In this document: piece by piece, positions 7,464 to 9,208 of the stretch
How the letters are laid out: every line of letters begins with the position of its first letter
How positions within the stretch are numbered: position 1 is the first letter of the stretch
IMG/VR virus record: IMGVR_UViG_641736225_000038
DNA: 19,876 nt
Reading direction: 5' to 3' (one strand)
Origin: a virus
Taxonomy: Duplodnaviria > Heunggongvirae > Uroviricota > Caudoviricetes
Notes under the pieces: generated by a model
The model's database searches: none
Seen by the model: only the letters and a program-made list of their open reading frames with translations
What the model was told of the DNA's origin: nothing
Position numbers and translations under genes: made by a program

Positions 7464-7895
7464 CAATTTTTTTACGTTCAGAAAAATAAAGGTAACCGGA
7501 TTCAATAAATTAGATGCTATAATTGAATTTGGTTCTAAATTGACTATTTTATATGGTGGTTCTGACTCTGGAAAAACATACATATATTATTTGATTCGAT
7601 ATTTATTAGGGAGTGAAAAACTAAAAAATAAAGATATCGATCATGCTCAAGGTTATGATTTAGCCTATCTGGAATTTAATTTTCAAGGTAGGGTAATGAC
7701 AATTGAGAGGTCTCTTCAGGATAGCGCCCATTACAGATTATATGATTCGAGCATTGAAAATGTTAGTGAAGCTAATCTGTTGATGGTTTTTTCCAAAAGT
7801 GCTTCGTCTAAAAAGAGTTTTTCATCATACTTTTATGGTAGGTTGAATTTCAAAGAGGCTAAAGTAAGAACAAACTTAAGTAATACTCTTCATAA
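7456..7895 (+). pseudogene. 5' fragment of an SMC/RecF-like ABC ATPase gene, truncated by IS629 insertion
   Basis: MNDNFFTFRKIKVTGFNKLDAIIEFGSKLTILYGGSDSGKTYIYYL...: N-terminal head-domain pattern with Walker A GGSDSGKT. The reading frame runs straight into the IS terminal repeat at 7896; the ORF-track tail ...NEPPRVSWRVFYL is IS-encoded. Start could also be ATG 7438. Confidence 0.7.
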
Positions 7896-7937
7896 TGAAC
7901 CGCCCCGGGTTTCCTGGAGAGTGTTTTATCTGTGAAC

Positions 7938-8828
7938 TCAGGCTGCCAGATCATCGTTTCCGATGGAAGCATAATAAGCTTTTTCTGCTTCTGCCGGAGG
8001 AGTATGGCCCAGCCTTCCCAGCAATCGTCGATTGTTATACCAGTCCACCCACGTTAGTGTGGCCAGTTCCACTTCTGCACGGTTTTTCCAGCTCTTACGG
8101 TGTATTACCTCCGCTTTGTAAAGACCATTGATGCTCTCAGCCATCGCGTTGTCATACGAGTCGCCTGTACTCCCTGTTGATGCCAGTAATCCGGCTTCTT
8201 TTAGTCGCTCCGTATAGGCCAGTGACACATACTGAGAGCCTTTATCGCTGTGATGGATGGTGCCAGACGGACGACGGGCCCACAACGCCTGCTCCAGCGC
8301 ATCCAGCACGAATGTCGTTTCCATAGACGATGAGACCCGCCACCCCACGATGTATCCGGCAAACACATCAATGATAAACGCCACATAGACGAAGCCCTGC
8401 CATGTGCTGACGTAAGTAAAATCAGCCACCCACAGCTGGTCAGGTCGTTCTGCCACGAACTGACGGTTTACGCGGTCGCCTGCGGCAACGGCTTTCCGGC
8501 TGATGGTCGTACGGACCTTTTTACCCCGGAGAACACCGGCAAGTCCCATAACCGCCATGAGACGTGCCACTGTACATCTGGCCACCCTGATTCCTTCCCG
8601 TAACAACTGACGCCAGACTTTACGCACACCGTACACCTGATGATTTTCATCGTATACGCGCTGTATCTCTCTCTTCAGCCAGTCGTCGTGCTGCGCACGG
8701 GCACTGCGTTTATCCGGATGATGTCGCTGTTGCTGACAATGGTAATACGTTGACGGGGCAATATGCAGTTCGCTGCATACCGGTCCGACCCCGTACTGCT
8801 CACGCAGCTTATCCAGCAGTGGCATCAT
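7938..8828 (-). CDS. IS3-family transposase OrfB (DDE domain), IS629-type
   Basis: 296-aa ORF ...[50 protein letters not shown]...[11 protein letters not shown]...[21 protein letters not shown]...: integrase-core catalytic triad context. Overlaps orfA by 4 nt, as for frameshift-fused IS3 transposases. Confidence 0.9.
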
Positions 8829-9151
8829 TTTTTCCAGAGGCGGTCGAACTCCGCCTTCGCAAAATAAGCGGAAGCCTGGCGAAGGATATCGTTACTGCGG
8901 CGCAGTTCACGATTTTCACGTTCCAGCTCTTTCAGACGCTGACGTTCAGCGCTGGTGAGCCCACCATCACCGCCCCCGGTATCCCGCTCATGCTGGCGAA
9001 CCCAGACACGCAGAGTCTCCGGCGTACAGCCAATCTTTGGGGCAATGGAACAAATTGCCGCCCACTGTGAGTCATATTCATCCTGACTTTCCAGAACCAT
9101 ACGAATCGCCCGCTGACGGACTTCGGGGGAAAAACGAGTATTTTTAGTCAT
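8825..9151 (-). CDS. IS3-family transposase OrfA (HTH), IS629-type
   Basis: [60 protein letters not shown]...[39 protein letters not shown] plus leucine-zipper region typical of IS3 OrfA; GAGG-containing RBS upstream. Confidence 0.9.
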
Positions 9152-9208
9152 CCTGTTTACCTCTTTCTCAGGGAGTTTAGTCTCCAGGATTTCCGGGGCG
9201 GTTCATAA

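Follow-up and report, generated by a model that had tools for sequence, protein, structure and literature searches.

An IS629/IS1203 insertion in an already degraded Lamassu ATPase gene of the P4-like satellite Sp2 of Escherichia coli O157:H7

Introduction

A complete insertion sequence (IS) lying inside the ATPase gene of an anti-phage cassette raises the question of whether the insertion switched off the defence, or fell into a gene that had been lost before. The case considered here lies in a DNA stretch of 19,876 nucleotides (IMG/VR record IMGVR_UViG_641736225_000038; the whole stretch is referred to as the window), in which a copy of IS629/IS1203 interrupts a gene assigned by homology as lmuB. 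This gene would encode the SMC-like ATPase of a Lamassu (ABC-three component, ABC-3C) cassette of the order lmuA-lmuC-lmuB, carried by the P4-like satellite Sp2 of Escherichia coli O157:H7. An earlier note, prepared from the sequence of the window, had described the insertion as a recent and clean inactivation of the ATPase of a satellite-borne defence system, and had suggested that a costly or autotoxic system may thereby have been lost, or the host sensitised to phage. Comparison of the window with IS-free alleles and with intact homologues makes it highly probable (about 0.93) that the insertion, confined to one strain, struck a pseudogene array in decay and was selectively neutral, and that the cassette had lost its function before the IS reached it.

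Insertion site and uninterrupted allele

The IS occupies positions 7896-9205 of the window and sits between bases 2 and 3 of lmuB codon 147. It is flanked by two directly readable copies of TAA, the left at 7893-7895 and the right at 9206-9208; the junctions read ACTCTTCA TAA followed by the IS start TGAACCGCCCCGGGTTTCCTGGAGAG, and the IS end CTCCAGGATTTCCGGGGCGGTTCA followed by TAA ATTTAAT. A spliced query of 2088 bases of flanking sequence, from which 7896-9208 (the IS and one TAA) had been taken out, gave one-piece matches at 100% identity in Sakai, EDL933, Xuzhou21 and dozens more O157:H7 genomes. The uninterrupted allele that the earlier note had proposed to seek in related strains was thus found, and the empty site of Sakai and EDL933 carries a single TAA. 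As the empty site holds one TAA and the spliced flanks match in one piece, the duplication is a true product of transposition, in agreement with the earlier reading of a perfect 3-bp repeat, and TAA/TAA against a single TAA conforms to the 3-4 bp target-site duplication of IS629/IS1203.

The spliced-flank search also revealed that the locus is carried by 309 E. coli genomes, all at 99% identity or more. The left junction, probed with 120 bases, is fully matched in three of these 309, namely M1300706002, 6535WT and 6535NalR. RM6535 is the strain of the 2006 iceberg-lettuce outbreak and belongs to clade 2, and the three genomes represent RM6535, its laboratory nalidixic-acid-resistant derivative and an isolate from a patient with a laboratory-acquired infection, which lie 0-2 single-nucleotide polymorphisms apart (PMC9234449). 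The window is identical to M1300706002 over 19.7 kb, IS included, and outside the IS it is identical to Sakai base for base (7895 + 10499 bases); it is O157:H7 strain RM6535/M1300706002. Since no other clone among the complete genomes searched has the insertion, the event is recent, as had been proposed from the intactness of the IS and of its duplication.

The ATPase frame, which starts at the ATG at 7456, runs straight into the IS, as the earlier note had described, and stops 40 bases inside it, at 7933-7935. The annotated N-terminal fragment of LmuB, which is 210 amino acids long without the IS, is thereby converted to a 159-residue fusion ending within the element. The insertion is already annotated in RefSeq.

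Lesions that predate the insertion

The claim that a working ATPase was cleanly inactivated had been tied to a test, namely that the two flanking halves should join into one continuous homologous open reading frame (ORF) once the IS and one TAA are taken out. The first part of this expectation stands, as the halves join correctly at the junction and the joined frame is colinear with five aligned homologues across it. The second part does not, because the joined frame runs just 64 codons past the junction and then meets a TAA at 9399-9401. This nonsense codon (plus strand) results from a T>A change at 9400, which converts Leu211 from TTA to TAA, the leucine (in the context F-L-K) being present in all five aligned homologues.

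A second lesion of lmuB, located by DNA alignment to the Proteus gene, is a -1 frameshift at 9960-9964 on the plus strand, near codon 399, where a run of five A residues replaces the six of the intact gene. The effector gene lmuA (5999-7005, plus strand) is likewise broken by a -1 frameshift at ~6405, with a gap at ~6404 relative to Proteus, into an ORF at 5999-6415 (138 amino acids) and another at 6388-7005 (205 amino acids). The 335-residue LmuA of Proteus aligns to the window in two frames, with 94% and 90% identity, and these two ORFs are therefore considered to be the halves of a single frameshifted effector. In RefSeq the halves are named 'hypothetical protein' and 'ABC-three component system protein', and are not called a pseudogene.

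Intact homologues of LmuB, retrieved with the conceptual 606-residue product as query, are single proteins, those of Proteus mirabilis (606 amino acids, 87% identity) and Pantoea alhagi (606 amino acids, 75% identity) being both aligned over 100% of the query; further single-protein homologues of ~594-612 amino acids occur in Salmonella, Serratia, Klebsiella, Citrobacter, Yersinia and Aeromonas. DNA alignment of the cassette to the intact Proteus operon, at 89% identity, contains exactly two 1-bp gaps (~6404 and ~9959) besides the TTA/TAA difference. All the three lesions are present base for base in the IS-free Sakai genome, where the gene (ECs_0293) is annotated as an 'AAA family ATPase' pseudogene of 1820 bases. 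The allele into which the IS was inserted was thus already interrupted at two places in lmuB and one in lmuA, and an account of the IS event as sensitisation to phage, or as the discarding of a costly or autotoxic system, has no basis, the cassette being already broken.

Two further explanations of the fragmented gene were considered and rejected. The three small ORFs that follow the IS could be separate genes in their natural organisation, but the homologues are single proteins of ~594-612 amino acids colinear with the joined fragments. A sequencing error in homopolymer runs is countered by the presence of the lesions in every allele aligned, and by the 100% matching of the spliced window in Sakai, EDL933 and dozens of genomes.

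Distribution of the lesions and order of decay

The order in which the lesions arose has been approached by an alignment of the alleles of the window, Sakai, EC4115 (L007), ERL04-3476 (L006), O55:H7 DEC5A (L005) and Proteus. Both frameshifts, that of lmuA and that in the A run of lmuB, are present in every E. coli allele compared, including that of O55:H7 DEC5A. The TAA at 9399-9401 is present in the window, Sakai, EC4115 and ERL04-3476, whereas Proteus and O55:H7 DEC5A have TTA. This distribution places the two frameshifts as the oldest lesions of the cassette, which arose before the split of O55:H7 and O157:H7.

Further damage is confined to single alleles. EC4115 has a private -1 change in the A8 run at 9760 of lmuB. 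ERL04-3476 has a +1 change at 9930, which returns the 3' part of lmuB to frame but leaves a stop in the shifted stretch, and O55:H7 DEC5A shows a -1 change at 9931 in lmuB together with an internal stop in lmuC at 7265. The private indels and the lmuC stop, lying on different branches, indicate an ongoing decay of the cassette. An annotation survey of 60 records, evenly spread among the 310 that match a 1492-base query, revealed no intact allele, the annotation being fragmented in all 60; nor did one come to light among the 309 genomes with the locus.

Identification of the cassette

The assignment to Lamassu, which supports the earlier suggestion of a defence cargo, is based on domain and system models. 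The two lmuA halves together span an effector with an ABC-3C CTD6 domain (Pfam CTD6 in 6388-7005), and its intact Proteus homologue matches the PADLOC LmuA model with an E-value of 2e-87. The next gene, lmuC (7005-7463, plus strand), encodes ABC-3C middle component 2, as evident from matches of the window product to Pfam MC2 (E 5e-30) and PADLOC LmuC (E 3e-36), and it is the sole intact gene of the cassette in the window. The PADLOC LmuB model matches the intact Proteus protein with an E-value of 3e-117 over positions 3-608 of 610. The PADLOC models of all three components match over their full length.

The remains of lmuB, all on the plus strand, are distributed over four pieces. The 5' part at 7456-7895 comprises codons 1-146 and two bases of codon 147, is colinear with the 606-residue homologues and carries the Walker A motif GGSDSGKT. 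The continuation past the IS to the premature stop, at 9209-9401, keeps the frame across a junction whose context is that of the Proteus gene. The middle fragment at 9402-10022, still in the frame of the 5' part, covers the coiled coil with its CxxC hook and terminates at a stop that the frameshift creates, while the 3' fragment at 10022-10588, in the shifted frame, carries the Walker B motif FVVLDS. Reconstructed LmuB therefore displays Walker A (with K40 as its lysine), an invariant CxxC halfway along the coiled coil, and a Walker B of the type hhhhDS, the form hhhhD[Q/S/T/E] having been described for short Lamassu (PMC12663957).

By homology, the ATPase thus has the Walker A, coiled coil and Walker B expected of an SMC-like Lamassu component, and the Pfam and PADLOC matches provide LmuC and an effector with an ABC-3C C-terminal domain. 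The gene order of CTD6 effector, middle component 2 and SMC-like ABC ATPase is that of the short LmuA-LmuC-LmuB systems. The window cassette differs from them in being a pseudogene array, with lmuA frameshifted and lmuB affected by a nonsense codon, a frameshift and the IS; as its components are not all intact genes, it is a remnant rather than a working member of the family.

Other collections were less informative. Pfam on reconstructed LmuB gave just AAA_15, below threshold (20.9 bits, with a cut-off of 32.1); no match to the N-terminal domain of LmuA was present in Pfam or NCBIfam, and NCBIfam offered no model for any of LmuA, LmuB and LmuC. No Lamassu structure was recovered from the Protein Data Bank by sequence searches with intact LmuB or LmuA, or with an LmuB profile; these yielded a marginal match to an SMC head (E 0.02) and otherwise noise, and the Lamassu assignment accordingly relies on PADLOC and Pfam models and not on structures.

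The IS629/IS1203 element

IS629/IS1203 is the most active IS of E. coli O157:H7. The copy in the window is 1310 bp long, belongs to the IS3 family and has its transposase on the minus strand. Its identity was judged against annotated copies in E. coli genomes: in megablast the whole 1310 bp gave full-length matches of 100% identity to copies annotated as 'IS3-like element IS1203 family transposase', and matches of at least 99% were recorded in 1230 records in a search of 5,426 complete E. coli genomes. The element starts with TGAACCGCCCCGGG and ends with CCGGGGCGGTTCA. Its ends are imperfect inverted repeats beginning TGAACCGCCCC, the orfB-distal repeat at 7896-7920 pairing with the orfA-proximal repeat at 9181-9205; 22 of 25 positions agree with the reverse complement, including all 13 terminal bases.

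Both reading frames of the element are open on the minus strand. The first, orfA (8825-9151, 108 amino acids), matches Pfam HTH_Tnp_1 (E 2.4e-12), and orfB (7938-8828, 296 amino acids) encodes a DDE transposase with matches to Pfam rve (E 9e-28), HTH_21 and rve_3. They overlap at ATGA following a run of six A residues (A6-TGATG; context GGAAAAAATGATG), and in RefSeq orfAB is given as a transposase made by programmed frameshifting (WP_171877072.1). An ALIL pseudoknot, which stimulates such frameshifting, spans the overlap at 8754-8870 on the minus strand (Rfam RF01497, 121.5 bits against a gathering score of 50). The two overlapping ORFs and the predicted programmed -1 frameshift are those expected of IS629/IS1203. 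The earlier description of a complete IS629-like element with both inverted repeats and intact overlapping orfA and orfB is thus confirmed: all the defining features tested are present, and the element is a complete, undegraded IS629/IS1203.

In its 1310-bp length, its orfA/orfB arrangement, its -1 frameshift and its ALIL pseudoknot, the copy resembles the IS629/IS1203 of O157:H7 in general. For IS629 in O157:H7, duplications of 3-4 bp and frequent strain-specific insertions in prophages and prophage-like elements are normal (PMC3271280), and the present insertion shares both; there is no mechanistic difference, and it is particular only in its site, codon 147 of lmuB in Sp2. In ERL04-3476, a separate IS629 copy (L006 36-1345, with 2 mismatches to the window copy) interrupts the Sp2 integrase at a site corresponding to window 5638-5640, flanked by CTT/CTT, and represents a second, independent hit of IS629 on Sp2.

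Effect of the insertion and alternative explanations

The course of events most consistent with these observations begins with the -1 frameshifts in lmuA and lmuB, followed by the gain of the Leu211 TAA in the O157:H7 lineage. IS629/IS1203 then jumped into the Sp2 copy of RM6535 and generated the TAA duplication in codon 147 of lmuB, as the latest of several independent decay events and not as the one that switched off the defence. All of LmuA, LmuB and LmuC are required for a Lamassu system to work. Defence is lost in other members of the family when the Walker A motif of LmuB, or a single position of the A-B-C interfaces, is mutated (PMC12663957), and judging from these losses a cassette with a split LmuA and an LmuB cut at residue 210 would be unable to defend. 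No further plus-strand ORF was found, among the window ORFs or in the annotation, between lmuB and the convergent delta/psu genes, and hence no polar effect is expected. The insertion would therefore probably have had no phenotype.

Certain points weigh against this reading. The inactivity of the IS-free O157 cassette is deduced from its gene structure. The lesion at 9960-9964 lies in a homopolymer run and that at ~6405 beside one, run lengths differ among strains, and occasional slippage could in principle restore these two frames. Moreover, lmuC is intact, and the annotation of IS-free strains retains as a protein a 210-residue LmuB fragment containing only Walker A; lmuC and the LmuB fragments may keep some role outside defence.

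It might nevertheless be argued that the IS itself inactivated a functional defence ATPase, either because selection disfavoured a costly or autotoxic system or with sensitisation to phage as the result. The element is intact and recent, it breaks the frame at codon 147 and so separates Walker A from the remainder of the protein, and the target belongs to a bona fide defence family in a defence hotspot. The IS-free allele, however, has the stop at codon 211, the frameshift near codon 399 and the frameshifted lmuA; these lesions are identical in Sakai and EDL933, and both frameshifts extend to O55:H7, so that they predate the insertion, and the Sakai gene is annotated as a pseudogene. This explanation is accordingly regarded as highly improbable. 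A comparably low probability is given to a phase-variable or recoded cassette, in which the frames would be intermittently recovered by slippage in poly-A or poly-T tracts until the IS turned a switchable system permanently off. Such a proposal draws on the change from A6 to A5 in lmuB, on the location of the nonsense change at a T/A run boundary (T6A6 to T5A7), and on the additional +1 and -1 changes that other strains show in their A runs (9760 and 9930-9931). The TAA is, however, a base substitution which slippage cannot reverse, and three lesions in two genes would have to be bypassed simultaneously. The extra indels restore no ORF either, as the +1 at 9930 of ERL04-3476 leaves the stop of the shifted stretch in place and the TAA of codon 211 remains; the gain of a stop in lmuC by O55:H7 DEC5A also fits a pattern of decay and not of switching.

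Misplacement of the IS during assembly, among the about 20-40 IS629 copies of the genome, has to be considered since IS629 occurs at 36-40 places or more per record in several O157 genomes. The same junction is nevertheless present in three separately sequenced closed genomes, obtained with long and short reads, and an exact 3-bp duplication of the one TAA present in the empty site is what true transposition leaves behind; the probability of an artefact is negligible. A more far-reaching idea concerns the decay as a whole, of which the tally now includes two ancient frameshifts, the O157 nonsense codon, the poly-A indels, the O55:H7 lmuC stop, and IS629 in lmuB of RM6535 and in the Sp2 integrase of ERL04-3476. 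Lamassu systems respond to phage replication origins and to DNA ends, and are active against plasmids as well. The repeated independent damage might then record an early counter-selection of an autotoxic Lamassu in a lineage that later gained many lambdoid prophages and pO157, with some activity perhaps kept by the surviving lmuC or the N-terminal LmuB fragment; the evidence does not support this idea, and it is considered very unlikely. A neutral hit on a cassette in decay is thus retained as the preferred interpretation.

The satellite Sp2 and its surroundings

The window takes in the end of prophage Sp1 of Sakai and almost the whole of Sp2, an element labelled 'prophage Sp2, P4-like phage' in Sakai; the earlier assignment of the host element to a satellite was therefore correct. 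One boundary of the cargo region is the Sp2 (P4-like) integrase gene at 4814-5995 on the plus strand (RefSeq; Pfam Phage_integrase domains), and the other is formed by the P4-type delta/ogr, psu and sid genes at 10998-12576 on the minus strand (RefSeq). Sp2 further contains an Icd-like protein and an alpha-type primase-helicase (RefSeq; primase-helicase domains). An isrK RNA at 13842-13919 and a C4 antisense RNA at 13988-14075, both on the plus strand (Rfam, 71.9 and 84 bits), adjoin each other upstream of the helix-turn-helix and Icd-like genes of Sp2, and we take this stretch to be the P4-like immunity region. Sp2 thus has the core genes of a P4-like satellite (int, delta/ogr, psu, sid, icd-like and alpha primase-helicase) together with this probable immunity RNA region.

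P4-like satellites have their variable cargo hotspot in the psu-int interval (PMC9122126), where the Lamassu cassette lies. The G+C content is 31% in the int-psu cargo, 47% in the rest of Sp2 and 54% in the IS. With the IS, Sp2 measures ~14.2 kb instead of ~12.9 kb. The position of the cassette, between the integrase and delta/psu/sid, is that of the P4-like defence hotspot (Rousset et al. 2022), from which Sp2 differs in that its cargo is dead across the O55:H7/O157:H7 lineage and survives only as a fossil. An ORF of 318 amino acids (17345-18301, minus strand), which follows the primase-helicase gene and lies at the distal end of Sp2, gave no match in Pfam, NCBIfam or PADLOC; it may be a second cargo gene.

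Several features lie outside the satellite or at its border. An intact GIY-YIG (LEM-3-like) protein encoded at 1511-2335 on the minus strand, adjoining the pin invertase and tail-fibre genes in the Sp1 remnant, matches PADLOC PD-T4-3 over its full length (E 2e-140) and appears to be a single-gene anti-phage system. A truncated IS3-family element at ~3856-4327 on the minus strand lies at the Sp1/Sp2 boundary; it is annotated as a partial ISEc48 in Sakai and as an integrase-core pseudogene in RefSeq. In O55:H7 DEC5A, Sp2 directly adjoins a tRNA-Thr gene (L005 281-356) downstream of proA, where O157:H7 has Sp1 sequence, which suggests that Sp1 arrived later, in tandem with Sp2.

Significance

Public annotation already records both the insertion and the fact that its target is a pseudogene, and the event is of a known kind, IS629 insertion polymorphism being a routine form of strain variation in O157:H7 that is used for typing. 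The IS junction could serve as a marker of the RM6535 (2006 outbreak) lineage. When an IS is encountered in a defence gene, the IS-free allele should be checked against an intact homologue before the IS is called the inactivating event. For the O55:H7/O157:H7 lineage, the finding means that Sp2 carries a fossil Lamassu, which domain-based censuses of defence systems may count as present, as lmuC and the fragments of lmuA and lmuB still score.

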